Source: Bacteroidota bacterium (GTDB taxonomy: Bacteria > Bacteroidota > Bacteroidia > Bacteroidales > PUMT01). Taken from it: a stretch of 64,000 nt of DNA. Position numbers and translations under genes: made by a program. Under the pieces are notes generated by a model. It was not told the DNA's origin. It searched no databases and saw only the letters and a list, made by a program, of their open reading frames with translations. Positions 5,799-43,351 of the stretch are shown piece by piece. The stretch lies in contig JBBIHY010000011.1 of the NCBI GenBank assembly GCA_037446695.1, positions 23,172 to 87,171 of the forward strand. Direction: 5' to 3'. The first letter of the stretch is position 1. Each line of letters opens with the position of its first letter.

Positions 5799-7219
5799 TG
5801 CGCAGGGTTAACATATGGGGCAGCCTTGACCTGATTTCAGTATTGCTTTACCTGGCATTGGTTTTTATTGGCCTTATTAGTGTGTATGCTGCGGTTTATG
5901 ATGAAAACCACAGCAGTATATTTGATTTTTCACAACGCTACGGGAAACAGTTTGTGTGGATTATTGCTGCGCTACTAATAGCTTTTTCTATTATTCTGAT
6001 TGATGGCAAGTTCTTCACGGTATTTGCCTATGTTATTTATGCAGGAACCCTGATCAGCCTTGTGGCTGTTTTACTTTTTGGCGTGGAAATCAATGCATCC
6101 AGGTCCTGGTTCCATTTCGGGAGTGTCGGTCTTCAGCCTGCCGAGTTTGCCAAGGTCGGGGTTGCACTGGCACTGGCTCAATATCTTAGTACGCCAAATA
6201 TTAAGATTCAATCTTTTCACGTGGTTAGTCGTGCAGTTGTCATAATTTTTCTTCCGGTAGCACTTATATTACTTCAACCAGATGTTGGTTCTGCCCTTGT
6301 TTTTTTCGTCTTTATCCTTGTACTTTTCAGGGAAGGACTTTCTTCTGTTTATCTTCTCCTTGCCCTTGTTATGGGAGTTTTCTTTCTGCTGGCCCTCTAT
6401 CTTAATGACCTGAATATGCTGGTAGTCCTTATAGGGGTATTAATTCTGTCTTCCTTTTTTGTTATCAGAAGCATGCTGGTTGTGGCATCAGGTCTTTTAA
6501 TTATCGGATTTTCAACTGCCATAGTCTGGGGTACTCTTTTGTTATTCGGTAAAAGCCTTTCGTGGCATTTGATTCTCCTTATCGCCATCGCTTTTTCCAC
6601 ACCCTTTATTTTTTTCCTGGCATTCCGTTACAAAATAAAATATGTAACCGGACTGCTTGCCTTTTTTGTTACGTCCATTGTGTTTACCTCATCGGTGGAT
6701 TATGTTTTCGACAATGTACTTAAACCCCATCAGCAAAAGAGAATTCATATCATGTTAGGTATTGAATCAGATCCTCAGGGTTATGGTTATAACCTTAACC
6801 AGTCCAAAATTGCCATTGGTTCAGGAGGACTGGGCGGAAAAGGCTTTCTTCAGGGAACCCAGACCAAGTTTAACTTTGTTCCTGAGCAAACAACCGATTT
6901 CATTTTCTGCACCATTGGAGAGGAATACGGTTTTGTGGGAACATTCCTGTTTATTGTCATTTTTTCTGGTCTGCTCATCCGTCTTGTTTTTCTGGCCGAA
7001 AGGCAGAGGACTGCTTTTAGCCGTATTTACGGATATTCCGTTGTTGCGGTATTATTTTTTCATATGGCCGTCAATGTTGGCATGACCATTGGACTGGTTC
7101 CCGTAATAGGAATTCCCCTTCCTTTTATTAGCTATGGAGGTTCCTCTCTGTGGGGTTTTACTGTTTTGCTCTTCATTTTCCTTCGCCTGGATGTGTCGCG
7201 ACTCGAAATTGCAAGATAA
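5795..7219 (+). CDS. rodA: SEDS-family peptidoglycan polymerase RodA
   Basis: The 474-aa polytopic FtsW/RodA/SpoVE-family protein contains QSKIAIGSGG and PEQTTDFIF motifs. Its start overlaps the mrdA stop by 4 nt. Confidence 0.9.
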   Translation: MMRRVNIWGSLDLISVLLYLALVFIGLISVYAAVYDENHSSIFDFSQRYGKQFVWIIAALLIAFSIILIDGKFFTVFAYVIYAGTLISLVAVLLFGVEINASRSWFHFGSVGLQPAEFAKVGVALALAQYLSTPNIKIQSFHVVSRAVVIIFLPVALILLQPDVGSALVFFVFILVLFREGLSSVYLLLALVMGVFFLLALYLNDLNMLVVLIGVLILSSFFVIRSMLVVASGLLIIGFSTAIVWGTLLLFGKSLSWHLILLIAIAFSTPFIFFLAFRYKIKYVTGLLAFFVTSIVFTSSVDYVFDNVLKPHQQKRIHIMLGIESDPQGYGYNLNQSKIAIGSGGLGGKGFLQGTQTKFNFVPEQTTDFIFCTIGEEYGFVGTFLFIVIFSGLLIRLVFLAERQRTAFSRIYGYSVVAVLFFHMAVNVGMTIGLVPVIGIPLPFISYGGSSLWGFTVLLFIFLRLDVSRLEIAR

Positions 7220-7312
7220 ATATTGCTTAAAATTTTTTACCAGTTCAGGGATTGAATAATTTTGTTCTCATTACAAGCCTGTTAAGTTTGAATTAATTTA
7301 CAGGACTATGAT

Positions 7313-7473
7313 TTTCATCCGCACAAAATAATTATATTATTAATTATCAACACATTACCTTCTGTCTTTTAACATTCATTATCGAGCCGATGCCTGCCTG
7401 CCGGCGGGCAGGGAACTCCATGTAGGCTATTTTCAATGGTATTTGTGTTTATTCGCAAACATGTTCGTTTCAT
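7313..7473 (+). repeat. copy of structured intergenic repeat (linker + hairpin with GC-rich palindromic insert)
   Basis: This copy is collinear with the units at 32107-32495 and with the reverse complement of 43191-43351. It contains CCGATG, the insert CCTGCCTGCCGGCGGGCAGG, and hairpin arms GAACTCCATGT (7413-7423) and ACATGTTCGTTTCAT (7459-7473). Confidence 0.85.
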
Positions 7474-7604
7474 AGTAATTATTTTTGTATGGAACCTGAT
7501 GTTTTATTCAGGGGAATACATACGTCAGAAAAAAAATATAAAATGAATTTCCACTGTAACTTTTTAATTGGCATGAGCGTCTTTCTTATAAAAGCTTGCA
7601 TGGA

Positions 7605-8090
7605 ATGACCGCGGAAGAATACAACAAATGCGTTGATCTTTTTTCAGACAATGTTTATCGCTTTATTCTCAAAAACATTAAGGATAAAGAGAAAGCGAGG
7701 GATATTGTTCAGGACACCTACGAGAAATTGTGGATGAAGGTGGAGTATGTAAATTTCCAAAAAGCCAAATCCTATTTGTTTTCAGCAGCCTATCATACCA
7801 TGATTGACGTAATAAGAAAAAACAGCAGACAAAGCCTGATGGAGGATGTTCATGTCTTGAGTCACTCACATATTGAGCAATACAGTGATTTAAATGAAGT
7901 ATTACATGAAGCAATTAGCAAATTGCCTGAATCGCAACGCTCTGTCATACTTCTGAGAGATTATGAAGGATATTCCTACGAAGAAATAGCGGAAATTACA
8001 TGCCTGTCGGAGTCACAGGTAAAGGTCTATATTTACCGGGGACGCATGTTTTTGAAAAATTATATCAGGAAAATGGAGGCTGTGATTTGA
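7605..8090 (+). CDS. ECF-type RNA polymerase sigma-70 factor
   Basis: Region 2 (DIVQDTYEKLW) and the region 4 HTH (LPESQRSVILLRDYEGYSYEEIAEI) are present. The ORF track begins at TTG 7596, and the ATG at 7605 is the more likely start. Confidence 0.88.
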   Translation: MTAEEYNKCVDLFSDNVYRFILKNIKDKEKARDIVQDTYEKLWMKVEYVNFQKAKSYLFSAAYHTMIDVIRKNSRQSLMEDVHVLSHSHIEQYSDLNEVLHEAISKLPESQRSVILLRDYEGYSYEEIAEITCLSESQVKVYIYRGRMFLKNYIRKMEAVI

Positions 8091-8091
8091 T

Positions 8092-9144
8092 ATGGATAAG
8101 ATAAACAGACATAATTATGAAGTGTTTTTCCTCGATTATGTTGAGGGGAATCTGGATGCTTCACAAAAGGAGGAGCTTTTTACCTTTCTTTCACTGAACC
8201 CAGATCTGAAAGTCGAGTTGGATGAATTTGAAATAATTACATTAGGTAACTCTTCGGAAAGGTTTGATATCAAGAACGATTTAAAAAAACTATATTATGA
8301 GGGGGACATTGTACATGGGAACCTGGATCAATTTATTATTGCCTCCCTGGAGGGAGACTTAAATAATTCACAGCAGGAAAAGCTGGATGAATTTTTACAT
8401 AATACTCCTGCTTACAGGGGAGATTATCGGTTATACACCCTGACAAAACTGCAGGCAGACAATTCCATCGTTTTTTTTGGCAAAAAGGGTCTCAAGAGGA
8501 GTGTTACGGGAAAAATTCTCCTGCTGAAAAAAATATCTGTTGCAGCCTCCCTTCTGATTCTTGCCGCTATTTTATTCTTTGTTATCACCGGAGAAGGTGA
8601 AAATAAGGGTTCCTTAATCGCCACGGAAACCAAGATTAAAGACAATGATTCTCTCATGCAGGATGATGTTTACCCCGGGAAGGCGGTTGAACAAAATCAG
8701 TTTACACCGTACAATAATAAAAGTTCAGTAATTATAAATCCAACAAAGACAGATGATTATAATAGGTTAGCAGAATTAAAGGTAGAGCAGGAAAGGTTTT
8801 TTCTTTCACCTGTTCAATCAATAAATCATGTCAGGATTAACTCCCAGCCGGACAAAATCCTTTTTGCACATATACCCGTGGGATCAGCCATTATCGAAAG
8901 GACAGATTTGATTTCAACCATACGACAGGGGGTGGATGATATTGCCCTTGCAATGGAAACCGGAGGGATTGAGGGTTCCGGAAGACTCACAATCTGGGAT
9001 ATTGCCGATGTTGGCATCAACGGTTTTGGAAAAATCACAGGCGTAAATGTTAAGCTGGATAAAACCAGGGATCTGGAAGGGAATGTCATTGCCCTGGCTT
9101 TTCAGTCAAGTCGGCTAAATTTTACAAAAAGGGTAAATAATTAA
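8092..9144 (+). CDS. putative membrane-anchored anti-sigma factor
   Basis: The 350-aa ORF starts 1 nt after the sigma gene stop and has a single central TM helix (ISVAASLLILAAILFFVI). The call is based on architecture and position only. Confidence 0.5.
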   Translation: MDKINRHNYEVFFLDYVEGNLDASQKEELFTFLSLNPDLKVELDEFEIITLGNSSERFDIKNDLKKLYYEGDIVHGNLDQFIIASLEGDLNNSQQEKLDEFLHNTPAYRGDYRLYTLTKLQADNSIVFFGKKGLKRSVTGKILLLKKISVAASLLILAAILFFVITGEGENKGSLIATETKIKDNDSLMQDDVYPGKAVEQNQFTPYNNKSSVIINPTKTDDYNRLAELKVEQERFFLSPVQSINHVRINSQPDKILFAHIPVGSAIIERTDLISTIRQGVDDIALAMETGGIEGSGRLTIWDIADVGINGFGKITGVNVKLDKTRDLEGNVIALAFQSSRLNFTKRVNN

Positions 9145-9205
9145 GCTGCTGTAACTTTTTACTGTACCTAATCGTCACAGCAATAAATAACAAATTTATA
9201 AAGAG

Positions 9206-10114
9206 ATGAAAAGAATTGTTTTAACCTTAACTATTTTATGCTTTACATTAAGTGCGTTCAATCAGCAGGAATCCTCTGTTGAAAAAAACGAAGAAGCAAT
9301 TAAGAAACTTCAGTTCCTCGAGGAATCTATTGATACTGTAAAAATACCAGGCGACACAACCAGGATTAAGATCGGCCGCAAGGAGGTGAGCATTTTTGAT
9401 TCGGGAGACGAGACAGAAATCAGGGTGAGACCTTTGGAGCAAAGTCAGGTGAGTCCCGAAGTGAAAACCAGGATGAGCCGCGTACGCAAGTTTCGTGGTC
9501 ACTGGTCAGGCTTTGAAATGGGCCTGAATAACTTTCTCGATGCGGATTTTTCTACATCCCACGGAGTCGATTATATGGAACTCAGGGCCAGCAAGTCGCT
9601 GAATGTGAACCTCAATTTCCTGCAGTACAATCTAAGACTTGCAAACGACAGGATAGGCCTGGTTACCGGGATGGGTCTGGAGTTTAATGATTACAAGTTT
9701 ATCAATGATTTTACAATTGAGCGAAACGGGGGTATTATTGAAGCATTGGATTTAAGTGCTTTTGACCTGGAAAAAACCAAGCTGTCCACCACTTACCTGA
9801 CAGTCCCCCTGCTTTTGGAGTTTCAAACCTCACAAATCAAAAGAAGTCACAGGCTATACCTTTCCGGCGGGGTTATCGGGGGTGTAAAGTTGGGGTCTCA
9901 TACCAAATTTGTACATTTCGAGTCCGGAAAGAAGAGAAAAGAAAAACTCCGTGACGATTTCTATATCAATCCTTTCAGGTATGGGGTAACTGTAAGGGCC
10001 GGATACAGGCAGCTCAATTTGTTTGCCAACTATTACTTCACTCCCTTGTTTCAGAACAACAAAGGACCTGAATTATATCCCTTTACAATAGGACTTTCGC
10101 TCTTTGGGTTTTAA
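9206..10114 (+). CDS. outer-membrane beta-barrel protein (porin-like)
   Basis: There is a signal peptide (MKRIVLTLTILCFTLSAF). The C-terminal half has alternating beta-strand character and ends in an aromatic residue (LSLFGF). Confidence 0.6.
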   Translation: MKRIVLTLTILCFTLSAFNQQESSVEKNEEAIKKLQFLEESIDTVKIPGDTTRIKIGRKEVSIFDSGDETEIRVRPLEQSQVSPEVKTRMSRVRKFRGHWSGFEMGLNNFLDADFSTSHGVDYMELRASKSLNVNLNFLQYNLRLANDRIGLVTGMGLEFNDYKFINDFTIERNGGIIEALDLSAFDLEKTKLSTTYLTVPLLLEFQTSQIKRSHRLYLSGGVIGGVKLGSHTKFVHFESGKKRKEKLRDDFYINPFRYGVTVRAGYRQLNLFANYYFTPLFQNNKGPELYPFTIGLSLFGF

Positions 10115-31498: not shown

Positions 31499-32017
31499 AT
31501 GGTGTCATGCATGGCTATAAAACCTATAATGCTCCGCACCGATAACGGCAGCCAGTTTATCGCCCACGGATTGCGTAACTTCTGCAAAAATAATGGGATT
31601 GCACAGGAGTTCACCCTCGTGGCCACACCAGAGGAGAATTCCTACGTGAAAAGCCTGTTCTCACTGGTGGAAAATGAAGTAATCCAGCGCTGTGAGTTTG
31701 AAAGCCTATACCACGCCAGAGACATATTCCAGAGGTATTTCAACTGGCATAACCACAAAAAAAGAAGGCATACTTTAGGTCGGATCAGTCCTGCAGAGTA
31801 TTGGAATACAGTCTTTAATTTGCATCTTGTTAAGCCACCAGCAGCGCTAAGTGGAGAATTTGTCAAGGGCGATGATACCAATAAAAAAATAAACAATTTA
31901 TCATCGCTCGTATTACCCTTGACAAATTCGAAACGTGGGCTATCTTTGCTTAACGAGGATGACAATGAAAACGTCCTAAACCTTTTTGAAAAATCTGTCC
32001 AAAGAATAGGGGGTTAA
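31499..32017 (+). mobile_element. 5'-truncated IS3-family transposase (integrase-core C-terminal remnant)
   Basis: Only the distal part of the rve/DDE core is present (LRTDNGSQFIAH ... PEENSYVKSLFSLVENEV ... YFNWHNHKKRRHTLGRISPAEYW). There is no N-terminal HTH or the first two catalytic Asp residues. An unusual ~70-aa tail follows. Confidence 0.75.
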
Positions 32018-32106
32018 GACAAAACCATATGAAATATTATTAAAATCTCTATTTTGTCTACGAGCTGACATTATTAAGAGAATTAATAAAGAGCAAACAG
32101 TTATTT

Positions 32107-32495
32107 TTTTCATCCGTAAATAATTTTTTGATTAAGGTCGGATGGAACTCCATGTTTGCTATTTTCATTGGTGTTTGTGTTTATTCGCAAACATGTTCGT
32201 TTCATCATTACAAAATATTTATATTGTTAATTACCAATATATTACCTTCTAGCTTTTAACAGTCATTATCGAGCGGATGGAACACCCATATTTTGTTCAT
32301 TGGTGTTTGTGCTAGCTGTCTTACATGGGTGTTTCATCCGTATAAAATATTTATGTTGTTAATTACAAGCATGTTACACCTTGTCGTTTAATGCTCTTTA
32401 ACAAACGGATGCCTGCCTGCCGGCAGACAGGGAACACCCATGTTGCTGATTTTGTTATTATTGTGTTTGTATTTGCAAAAACACGGGTGTTTCAT
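32107..32495 (+). repeat. tandem array (3 units) of structured intergenic repeat
   Basis: The hairpins lie at 32139-32205, 32274-32340 and 32406-32495. They are separated by conserved ~65-nt AT-rich linkers. Unit 2 has 16-nt arms, CGGATGGAACACCCAT and ATGGGTGTTTCATCCG. Unit 3 carries the insert CCTGCCTGCCGGCAGACAGG. Confidence 0.9.
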
Positions 32496-32507
32496 AATAT
32501 GACTGAT

Positions 32508-32927
32508 TTATTCAAAGATTTCAGATTTTTCAATTCCTAAAATTGCATTCTTACGGGTAATCAAGTATATGACTAGGTGAATGATAATACCAATCCCCCA
32601 GAAAAAAGCTGCGACATAAACAATTCTAATGCTTTCATAGTGTGGATGAAAACCAAATAAAAACCATAAGACTGACACCGTATTGAAAAGCAAGTATGTT
32701 ACAAAATGAAAACGAAATCCAATGTCATATAAAGGTAGAGTTTCATAATCCCTTTTGCCAAATAGCCAACCTATGAAAAGATTATAGAAAAAATAGATTA
32801 CCGCAATAATCCATACCAGAGTATATGTGCGATTTTCTAAAAAGTAACTCAAACCATACCAAAAAACTATGGCACCTATGAAAAAGAAAATCCCAAAATA
32901 CTTAAGGTTTTTTGTTAAAGCTTTCAT
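32508..32927 (-). CDS. small polytopic membrane protein (PadR operon partner)
   Basis: The 139-aa ORF has about 4 TM helices and starts 2 nt after the PadR stop. Confidence 0.6.
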   Translation of the reverse strand: MKALTKNLKYFGIFFFIGAIVFWYGLSYFLENRTYTLVWIIAVIYFFYNLFIGWLFGKRDYETLPLYDIGFRFHFVTYLLFNTVSVLWFLFGFHPHYESIRIVYVAAFFWGIGIIIHLVIYLITRKNAILGIEKSEIFE

Positions 32928-35594: not shown

Positions 35595-35918
35595 TTGACA
35601 GCTGAATTGTTAATTCGGGAAAGCAGAATTTTACATGGATTGTTTTTCTGTCACTTAGTGATAGAGAAAGCGATTAAAGCTCATATTGTTAAAACTTCTA
35701 AAGAAATTGCCCCTAAGTCGCACAACTTGATTTATTTATCCGAGAAAGCCAACTTAACATTTGATAATGACACCGAAATCTTTCTGGGAATTTTAATGAG
35801 GTATCAGTTACTAGGTAGATACCCTGATTATAATCCAGTAATACCAGATATTATAAAAGTTAATGGATACTTTGAAAAAACTAAAACTTTATTACAATGG
35901 CTAATAGAGAAATTGTAG
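35595..35918 (+). CDS. HEPN-domain protein (toxin-like partner of MNT), 5' end frameshifted or internally initiated
   Basis: The HEPN helical pattern is present (FFCHLVIEKAIKAHIV ... PKSHNLIYL ... LLGRYPDY). An upstream ATG at 35539 encodes MIDIKKQIDY in another frame, and the main frame continues as WIKGAGDDLLTAELL. Confidence 0.7.
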   Translation: MTAELLIRESRILHGLFFCHLVIEKAIKAHIVKTSKEIAPKSHNLIYLSEKANLTFDNDTEIFLGILMRYQLLGRYPDYNPVIPDIIKVNGYFEKTKTLLQWLIEKL

Positions 35919-36205
35919 ATATTTTGAAAAAGTATATTTTAGTTTTACGTTCAGAGGGAATAAACATTGATAAAGCATATTTATATGGCAGCTATTTGTC
36001 AAATACAGCAACTGATGAGAGCGATATTGATATTCTGATTGTTACTGATAATGAAGACGATTATTTAATTGGTAAAATATGGAGTTTGACAAGAAAGGTA
36101 AATTCAAAAATTGAACCTTATCTAGTTGGAAAAAGAAGGTTTATTAGTAATAATGACTCTCCGTTAATTGATTTAGTAAAAAGGACTGGAATAGAAATAT
36201 CATAA
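35897..36205 (+). CDS. minimal nucleotidyltransferase (MNT, antitoxin-like)
   Basis: The 102-aa ORF has the Pol-beta-type NTase motif (LYGSYLSN...ESDIDILIV). It overlaps the HEPN gene by 22 nt. Confidence 0.8.
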   Translation: MANREIVDILKKYILVLRSEGINIDKAYLYGSYLSNTATDESDIDILIVTDNEDDYLIGKIWSLTRKVNSKIEPYLVGKRRFISNNDSPLIDLVKRTGIEIS

Positions 36206-43190: not shown

Positions 43191-43351
43191 CGGATGAAAC
43201 ACCCATGATAATACCCAGGTCCAAACACGGATGAACAAACTATGGGTGTTCCCTGTCTGTCGTCAGGCAGGCATCAGTTTGTTAAAGAGCATTAATCGAT
43301 AAGGTGTAACATACTTGTAATTAATAACATAAATTTTTTGTACGGATGAAA
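43191..43351 (-). repeat. inverted-orientation copy of structured intergenic repeat (with GC-rich insert)
   Basis: The reverse complement aligns along its full length with unit 3 of the 32107-32495 array. The linker TTATGTT(A/G)TTAATTACAAG(T/C)ATGTTACACCTT is present. The arms are CGGATGAAACACCCAT (43191-43206) and ATGGGTGTTC (43242-43251), and the insert is at 43252-43271. Confidence 0.88.

Follow-up and report, generated by a model that had tools for sequence, protein, structure and literature searches.

A hairpin array best explained as stacked insertions of a mobile element family in Bacteroidota

We analyzed 64,000 nucleotides of a Bacteroidota bacterium (GenBank assembly GCA_037446695.1, contig JBBIHY010000011.1, positions 23,172 to 87,171 of the forward strand), referred to below as the window. 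At 32114-32495 it carries three head-to-tail units, each made up of an AT-rich linker and, after it, a hairpin with GTTTCAT at the end of its 3' arm. Taken together, the evidence is best explained if three members of a non-autonomous mobile element family, which is widespread in Bacteroidota and resembles the palindrome-associated transposable elements (PATEs) of the IS200/IS605 type, inserted here one after another. We put the probability of this explanation at about 0.6. Insertion occurs directly 3' of a (G)TTTCAT or TTCAT motif. That the family is a mobile element with TTTCAT-specific insertion is very probable, and there is good support for both its mobile nature and the rule of TTTCAT junctions. 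The array appears to be the visible tip of a large, widespread, and apparently undescribed repeat family of Bacteroidota.

Architecture of the array

An earlier reading of the window (the original prediction) described a three-unit array of linkers and hairpins, and the arms, loop, and palindrome that it listed were all found where it had placed them. The order of linker and hairpin stands. The unit boundary had to be moved: comparison with solo and foreign copies, whose limits of conservation define the unit, places it right after TTTCAT, and the linkers are then 28, 71, and 71 nt long. The features of the array are as follows.

32108..32113, plus strand: target hexamer TTTCAT bordering the array on the left; the minus strand reads ATGAAA, the start of a truncated signal-peptide open reading frame (ORF)
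32114..32205, plus strand: unit U1, short-linker type, 92 nt; linker 32114-32141 (28 nt), hairpin 32142-32205
32142-32205, plus strand: layout of the U1 hairpin, ATGGAAC-TC-CATGTTTGC ... GCAAACATG-TTC-GTTTCAT
32206..32337, plus strand: unit U2, 132 nt; linker 32206-32276 (71 nt), hairpin 32277-32337
32277-32337, plus strand: arms of the U2 hairpin, ATGGAACACCCAT ... ATGGGTGTTTCAT
32338..32495, plus strand: unit U3, 158 nt; linker 32338-32408 (71 nt), hairpin 32409-32495, terminal GTTTCAT 32489-32495
32412..32431, plus strand: nested 20-nt GC-rich palindrome CCTGCCTGCCGGCAGACAGG in the 5' arm of U3, between ATG and GAAC

A repeat search of the array returned a direct repeat of 116 nt at a spacing of 132 nt with 72% identity. 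It also returned the 16-nt arms that had been assigned to the second unit (32274-32289 and 32325-32340), which are 94% complementary and enclose a 35-nt loop. The outer 3 bp of this stem are shared with the next unit: the U2 foot CGG (32274-32276) pairs with CCG (32338-32340), the first 3 nt of U3. Tandem Repeats Finder reported nothing on the array because the units are unequal in length (92, 132, and 158 nt) and only ~72-75% alike. Folded as single-stranded DNA (ssDNA), the U1 hairpin has an energy of -9.3 kcal/mol (z = -3.25), and the U2 hairpin reaches z = -4.21.

Across the family, a unit consists of an AT-rich linker of ~28, 50, or 71 nt and a hairpin of 55-90 nt. The short-linker layout of U1 recurs in many metagenome copies. 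The 5' arm of the hairpin opens with N'N'N'-ATGGAAC and the 3' arm closes with GTTTCAT, and in ssDNA folds the stems are unbroken over 13-16 bp. On the opposite strand, the unit runs from ATGAAACACCC... to ...ACNG-ATGAAA. There is one stable hairpin per unit, the left end being the AT-rich linker. Terminal inverted repeats are absent; the left end (CCGTAC/CTGTTT/CATAAT...) and the right end (...GGGTGTTTCAT) are not complementary to each other. The hairpin loops (e.g., window 32290-32324, and many other loci) share a motif resembling (T)TTCAT-N-CGTGTTTGCG across subfamilies, that is, a third TTCAT together with a GTGTTTG core.

The GC-rich palindrome is not special to U3, in which it had first been noted. 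It is also found within the solo copies A (7393-7412) and B (43252-43271) described below, and in the window it is confined to copies of the element. In copies that bear it, the ssDNA fold forms a side hairpin inside the main stem. Comparable nested palindromes with a different GC sequence lie at the equivalent spot of two foreign copies, L095 and L127 (L127:414-520). The nested GC-rich palindromes CCTGCCTGCCGGCAGRCAGG, CCTGTCTGCCGACAGGCAG, and CCCCGATTCATCGGGG thus occupy an identical 5'-arm position in unrelated subfamilies and genomes. This position may be a REP-like (repetitive extragenic palindrome) secondary insertion hot spot or may hold an optional side-hairpin module.

Copies in the window, in other genomes, and in metagenomes

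The linker motif AAAATATTTATRTTGTTAATTAC matches the window four times (0 expected) and the arm CGGATGGAACACCCAT three times (0.33 expected). The additional matches led to two solo copies, so that the window holds five copies in all (U1, U2, U3, A, and B).

7319..7473, plus strand: solo copy A; TTTCAT before it at 7313-7318; it lies at the deletion junction where 2.4 kb of the related genomes are missing
43194..43345, minus strand: solo copy B, 152 nt; minus-strand TTTCAT before it at 43351-43346

A scan of a genome collection with the AT-rich linker motif gave mostly chance matches in AT-rich genomes. Among the matches listed, 9 of 92 were real; these nine true homologues come from four other Bacteroidota metagenome-assembled genomes (MAGs), six of them from "Bacteroidota bacterium MAG301" and the rest from two Bacteroidales MAGs and one Marinilabiliaceae MAG. 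Scanning metagenomes with the hairpin arms gave at least 120 loci. Among the matches listed, the junction counts given below refer to 98 unique copies and the start-codon counts to 90 evaluable unique copies. Viral contigs contained a single match, and a search of the PLSDB plasmids gave none.

The expectation that further copies exist was therefore borne out in the window, in other MAGs, and in at least 120 metagenome loci. The earlier comparison with ERIC, BIME, and miniature inverted-repeat transposable elements (MITEs) holds in so far as this is a dispersed repeat family; terminal inverted repeats, a variable target duplication, and a REP-type GTAG foot are all absent, which sets the family apart from classical MITE, ERIC, and BIME elements. 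No named family had been recognized at the outset, and Rfam agrees: only a tRNA reaches the gathering score in the whole window, and nothing meaningful appears at E <= 10 in 31900-32700. Our literature searches found no description of the family, and its motif is absent from the published REP tables (Quentin et al. 2018). A paper from the Sternberg laboratory on dCas12f and sigma-E was checked and judged to be unrelated.

Junctions and covariation of the hairpin foot

All 98 unique copies start directly 3' of (T/A/G)TTCAT and end in TTTCAT. In this sample, the search itself required the right TTTCAT; the same ending is seen in copies retrieved with the linker motif. The left hexamer is TTTCAT in 91 of the 98 copies and A/GTTCAT in the remainder, and it tracks the second codon (Lys or Asn) of the host gene. 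The left hexamer is therefore target DNA. The right flank is unrelated to the left flank except for the fixed TTTCAT. No target motif extending beyond TTTCAT was found in the flanks, which resemble ordinary ATGAAA gene starts and show only a modest excess of G at -7 and of A at +1.

The three nucleotides that follow the left TTTCAT are complementary to the three that precede ATGGAAC in 76 of the 98 copies, with at least 10 pair types. In an alignment of 83 sequences, 88.8% of the cells in this helix between the foot and the first 3 nt of the same copy are paired. Compensatory changes occur at all three foot pairs (in 11, 41, and 21 sequences), and 0 of 500 shuffles attained the observed value. 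With the right flank, the foot pairs at a rate near chance. Covariation, which the original prediction had named as a test, is thus present, between the foot triplet and the element's own 5' end. As the foot covaries with this end and not with the right flank, the hairpin is completed by the element's own left end. Closure of the hairpin across joined ends therefore physically needs a tandem junction, a circular form, or an interaction of the left end with a guide.

The motif ATGGAAC pairs with GTTTCAT through an invariant G:T; on the other strand, this pair is an A.C mismatch. The fold energy is -22.9 kcal/mol for the forward strand vs -17.9 kcal/mol for the reverse strand, and the forward fold is the more stable one in 88 of 100 copies. 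With the G:T pair neutralized, the forward strand is still favored (68 vs 30). ATGGAA(C) is complementary to the TTTCAT at both ends of the element and could act as a guide.

Empty sites and origin of the array

The saccharopine-dehydrogenase neighbor of copy B has homologues of 95%, 81%, and 75% identity on syntenic contigs, and none of these contigs contains the 152-nt element. The empty site reads GGGTTTCAT|CCGAAAC and, in the 95% relative, ...TTCTAAGGGTTTCAT|CCGAAAC.... The occupied site in the window reads ...TTCTAAGGATTTCAT[CCGTAC...GGGTGTTTCAT]CCGAAAT....

A second empty site was found for a copy of MAG301 that lies between an hdrB-like and an hdrA-like gene, precisely at the ATG of the latter. 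This site is empty in relatives of 95% and 88% identity, in which a 28-nt operon spacer ends ...ACCT|ATGAAAAAAG (also read as CTTTTTTCAT|AGGTAAG). A relative of 80% identity carries a copy of a different subfamily at the same hdrA-like ATG. For both sites, the 16-21-kb syntenic loci of the relatives contain no other copy of the element.

Copy A has no simple empty site because the relatives carry two extra genes there. Between rodA and an ECF sigma gene they hold sulP and an acid-phosphatase lipoprotein gene (~2.4 kb), both of which the window has lost (window 7219-7605 compared with 7296-10001 of the related locus L220). The left flank of copy A corresponds to the first 10 nt of sulP (ATGATTTTCA), and its right flank is homologous to DNA just past the TTTTTTCAT start of the relatives' acid-phosphatase gene. 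Both ends of the deletion thus coincide with the ends of the element. This suggests an element-associated adjacent deletion, and the element perhaps promotes such deletions.

The three units of the array are members of different subfamilies. The U1 hairpin is 93.5% identical to that of copy A, the U2 linker is 85% identical to the copy A linker, and U3 matches copy B at 91.8% identity over 110 nt; between U2 and U3, the similarity is only ~74%. Because the units are closer to dispersed copies than to each other, stacked insertion is favored over local duplication. Tandems of mixed subfamilies also occur in L175, L182, and L126. The TTTCAT junctions, the link to start codons, and this origin from different subfamilies rather than by local duplication were missing from the earlier account. 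With a TTTCAT of its own at the 3' end, the element makes the insertion site look duplicated and regenerates a target. Later copies, including those of other subfamilies, can then land behind earlier ones, and a head-to-tail array results.

Relation to genes and start codons

TTTCAT is the reverse complement of ATG-AAA, so that most surviving insertions lie precisely before a start codon on the opposite strand. The CAT of the left motif is the start codon of a long opposite-strand ORF in 70 of the 90 evaluable copies, and all nine copies from other genomes abut a start codon. The abutted genes read away from the unit. They are unrelated to each other and include genes for a TolC-like protein, a TonB-dependent receptor, NadD, an acyltransferase, an HdrA-like protein, and many lipoproteins; signal- or transmembrane (TM)-like N-termini are found in 47 of the 70 abutted ORFs. 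In the window, copy A is positioned where relatives have the start of the lipoprotein acid-phosphatase gene. The remaining copies are found past stop codons, between convergent genes, or behind another unit; copy B, for one, begins 3 nt beyond a transporter gene's stop codon.

Insertions at a start leave the gene itself intact and place a hairpin and an A-rich leader between it and the former upstream region. If the reading as a mobile element is true, a common and so far unannotated small element of Bacteroidota genomes repeatedly places a hairpin-bearing leader of 90-160 nt between genes and their upstream regions, sometimes within operons, as at the hdrB-hdrA junction, and could change the expression of many abutted genes. 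It also has a bearing on the annotation of start sites, as the element makes a decoy ATGAAAC upstream of the real start. No good match to the Bacteroidetes -33/-7 promoter (TTTG / TAnnTTTG) was seen by eye in either orientation. A regulatory role is possible but unsupported.

Proposed mechanism and points against it

We infer that transposition may be single-stranded, of the "peel-and-paste" IS200/IS605-PATE type, and driven in trans by an HUH (Y1) enzyme; for this mechanism itself our support is tentative, at slightly less than even odds. A single hairpin would serve as both ends of the element. ATGGAA(C) would act as a DNA guide by pairing with both motifs, the left target and the right end, and the three foot nucleotides would close the hairpin over the junction of right and left ends in an excised circle. 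The layout of motif, spacer, guide, hairpin, and motif would then combine the left-end and right-end arrangements of IS608 with one shared hairpin. Insertion 3' of a fixed penta- or hexamer, the lack of inverted repeats, seamless empty sites, strand asymmetry, and self-regenerating targets all fit an HUH enzyme. ISGst5, an IS200/IS605 element of Geobacillus, has TTCAT as its transposon-adjacent motif (PMC10055086). Bacteroidota encode RAYT-like subclasses with atypical or unknown substrates, and for the Bacteroidetes-specific Y1 subclasses the DNA substrates are likewise atypical or none is known (PMC6006769).

The family shares several further features with the PATEs of IS200/IS605 elements such as IS608, ISDra2, and ISGst5. 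They too lack terminal inverted repeats and insert 3' of a fixed penta- or hexanucleotide; they have a conserved motif at the 3' end and, 5' of the hairpin, an internal sequence complementary to both motifs. Their structure is strand-asymmetric, their empty sites look seamless, and a genome may contain many copies without genes. Unlike them, the family apparently uses one hairpin for both ends rather than separate left and right subterminal hairpins, and its guide pairs with the site by 7-10 Watson-Crick or G:T pairs inside the stem, as opposed to a 4-nt guide beside the stem. It also differs in that no cognate TnpA, TnpB, or IscB was found, in that a low-power test detected no replication-strand bias, and in its strong enrichment at start codons.

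Elements of the REP/REPIN type, which depend on RAYT enzymes of the Y1 class, likewise consist of many short hairpins outside genes, some of them in clusters. Presumably, a single-copy HUH enzyme mobilizes them in trans and their inheritance is mostly vertical. REP and BIME palindromes measure 20-40 nt and have a GTAG/CGTC foot, in contrast to hairpins of 55-90 nt with an ATGGAAC foot in the family described here. Its hairpin is two to three times longer than that of REPs and REPINs and is joined to a linker of 28-71 nt, its copies are not arranged in inverted pairs, and the RAYT-like genes met in this work carry other REPs.

Several observations weigh against an IS200/IS605-like origin. With IS200, IS608, and RAYT proteins as queries, tblastn detected no Y1 gene in the window. 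No transposase with the ends of the family was found, and the two Y1 genes present in 1.4 Mb of loci (in L209 and L214) are flanked by their own unrelated GC-rich REPs. Among ~100 loci there was no autonomous long version, as judged from left-end motifs without a nearby hairpin and from ORF maps upstream of "orphan" hairpins. A replication-strand bias was not detected by GC3-skew in 66 short loci, a test of low power (R = -0.015, CI (confidence interval) -0.042 to +0.014). Canonical IS200/IS605 elements have separate hairpins at their two ends, with guides of 4 nt, as opposed to a single hairpin here, with the cleavage motif in its stem. On sequence, a 6-bp target duplication made by another enzyme class would be indistinguishable from insertion 3' of TTTCAT. 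Finally, gene starts make up ~26% of the non-coding TTTCAT sites of the window yet ~78% of the copies. The 129 TTTCAT sites of the window divide into 9 at gene starts, 86 intragenic, 25 in other intergenic DNA, and 9 inside elements. Of the three independent insertion sites in the window, copy A and the array, with four of the five copies, lie on the plus strand, which is the G-rich one.

The excess at gene starts over their share of sites means that something beyond the hexamer is at work, be it targeting or selection. Easily melted AT-rich leaders are possibly better single-strand targets; other intergenic insertions are possibly counter-selected; or copies at starts are possibly retained for their usefulness. 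These three explanations could not be separated, so that the start-codon link is clear and its cause is not settled.

Candidates for an autonomous element or a mobilizing enzyme were considered among the loci and rejected. L181 carries an unrelated 840-nt insertion in its linker. On its minus strand, this insertion of ~840 nt, which has repeated ends (…GAGCGCAAGCGAAACATCTCATGGGGCCGATTAGAGATC…) and no obvious transposase ORF, splits the linker between the left end and the hairpin. The Y1 transposases of L209 and L214 were rejected as mobilizers since they carry their own GC-rich REPs. These Y1/HUH transposase-like genes (L209:1456-2152 and L214:8340-8960) are flanked by the REP hairpins CACTAACTCCGCC...GGCGGAG and CCCGTAGGG. 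The L214 protein has the Y..Q..HH signature of Bacteroidetes/Cyanobacteria subclass 1.2, and its gene lies inside an efflux operon.

A bolder version of the proposal is that the family represents an unrecognized minimal class of single-strand transposon. One hairpin with a 7-10-nt guide would act as both ends and home to ATG-AAA, the first two codons of genes, across Bacteroidota, mobilized by an orphan Y1/HUH subclass of Bacteroidota or an enzyme without a known link to transposition, and the element would be kept as a portable structured leader, often for genes of secreted proteins. We regard this version as doubtful. If the proposed mechanism is true, the element offers a compact substrate (motif, spacer, guide, hairpin, motif) on which sequence-guided single-strand transposition could be studied, and it may help to assign functions to orphan HUH transposase subclasses.

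Alternative explanations

The strongest alternative, though an unlikely one, is that the linker and the hairpin form a cis-regulatory leader RNA, a conserved module of the 5' untranslated region that acts as a translational switch common to many, often secreted, proteins' genes. On the sense strand, UUCCAU-NNN would have two alternative partners, the true N'N'N'-AUGAAA start and an AUGAAAC decoy located in the 5' arm. The position of 70 of 90 copies at the ATG of a long ORF at fixed distances, the frequent signal- or TM-like products (47 of 70), and the retention of copies at orthologous genes across diverged strains (e.g., L096, L113, L115, and L133) agree with a leader, and the covarying triplet would lengthen an anti-start helix. 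Against this, the sense-strand helix contains the invariant A.C mismatch, and its fold is weaker by ~5 kcal/mol. Copies are present or absent between relatives that are 95% identical, and they are also found downstream of genes, in convergent gaps, and in tandem stacks. Within a genome they are near-identical over their whole length and form mosaic subfamilies, and Rfam gave no match. The small structured-RNA family that the original prediction had offered as one option is accordingly the weaker reading: the better fold is antisense to the abutted genes, copies come and go in close relatives, and the mini-ORF is not conserved. For the mobile element that we favor, a regulatory effect acquired secondarily is possible.

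We think it less likely still that the unit is an integron-like folded site, in which a tyrosine recombinase would act at G|TTTCAT of an attC-type hairpin and the units would be tiny gene-less cassettes. The 7-nt boxes ATGGAAC and GTTTCAT do have AAC/GTT triplets at the R''/R' positions of attC, and the units are arrayed head to tail. Like attC, the site is a single-strand hairpin with AAC/GTT boxes, and its foot matches its own 5' end and not the 3' neighbor, as in integron cassettes, which implies a circular form. Integron attC sites differ in having extrahelical bases, an unpaired central spacer, and a cassette ORF; the stems seen here are continuous over 13-16 bp and the units contain no such ORF. 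In addition, the RRR of GTTRRRY is not matched by TCA, single copies are scattered over hundreds of sites instead of being grouped in cassette arrays beside intI, and the adjacent genes face away from the unit. The left hexamer, moreover, is derived from the target and follows the second codon of the host gene.

A classical MITE with terminal inverted repeats, or debris of the neighboring IS3 element, is very improbable. The array does lie 90 nt from an IS3-family remnant, and the units are of MITE-like size. Yet CCGTAC... and ...GTTTCAT, the two ends, do not form inverted repeats, the flanks show no variable duplication, and no IS3 is found near the solo copies A and B or near any foreign copy. 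Instead, the IS remnant appears to cut the gene abutted by U1. A dispersed repeat family with copies away from IS3 is not debris of an insertion sequence end, the possibility that the original prediction had named as its refutation. Promoter-proximal MITEs, such as the Correia elements of Neisseria, ERIC/IRU, and the pneumococcal RUP and BOX elements, are similar in being small repeats in transcribed leaders that can alter the expression of a neighbor. Unlike the family, Correia, ERIC/IRU, and RUP/BOX are bounded by terminal inverted repeats and by duplications (TA or others), and DDE transposases are thought to move them. Insertion exactly at a start codon is not known for any of them.

That the reverse strand of the hairpin encodes a family of small proteins (MKHPCK...MGVPSAR) can be dismissed almost completely: ORFs of 23-35 codons do begin at the ATGAAAC of several copies, but a stop follows after 4 codons in 28 of 126 copies and the 3' arm is read in three frames (MGVPS, WVFH, and GCS), and the reverse-strand mini-ORF (MKHP...) was rejected as a gene since neither frames nor stops are conserved.

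Neighboring features of the window

Two features border the array on its left.

31976..32113, minus strand: 45-codon remnant of a signal-peptide gene whose ATG abuts U1; reverse-strand ORF MKKITVCSLLILLI...
31499..32017, plus strand: remnant of an IS3-family transposase, C-terminal rve core; the rve integrase domain was confirmed, and the remnant is a neighbor and not a member of the family

The signal-peptide gene appears, from the sequence, to be cut after ~14 codons by the end of the IS3 remnant. The distances given originally, 90 nt from the array to this remnant and 12 nt to the 3' end of a convergent gene, are correct.

In relatives, tig is followed directly by clpP-clpX, and the window region in between, which holds the IS3 remnant and also 2TM/PadR, NMO, and nucleotidyltransferase/HEPN-like genes, is a variable insert. 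Two small adjacent ORFs at 35595-36205 resemble, by sequence, a HEPN-like/nucleotidyltransferase pair and may form a module of the toxin-antitoxin type.

The trigger factor of the window is present in MAG GCA_964506165.1, on a contig that stops inside the neighboring IS remnant. Short-read contigs of the same species break at repeats of the window: L001 (contig end of GCA_964506165.1) in the IS3 remnant and L219 (contig start, SRR11582151) in copy A. For metagenome assembly, copy A and the IS remnant beside the array thus fragment the contigs and MAGs of this species.

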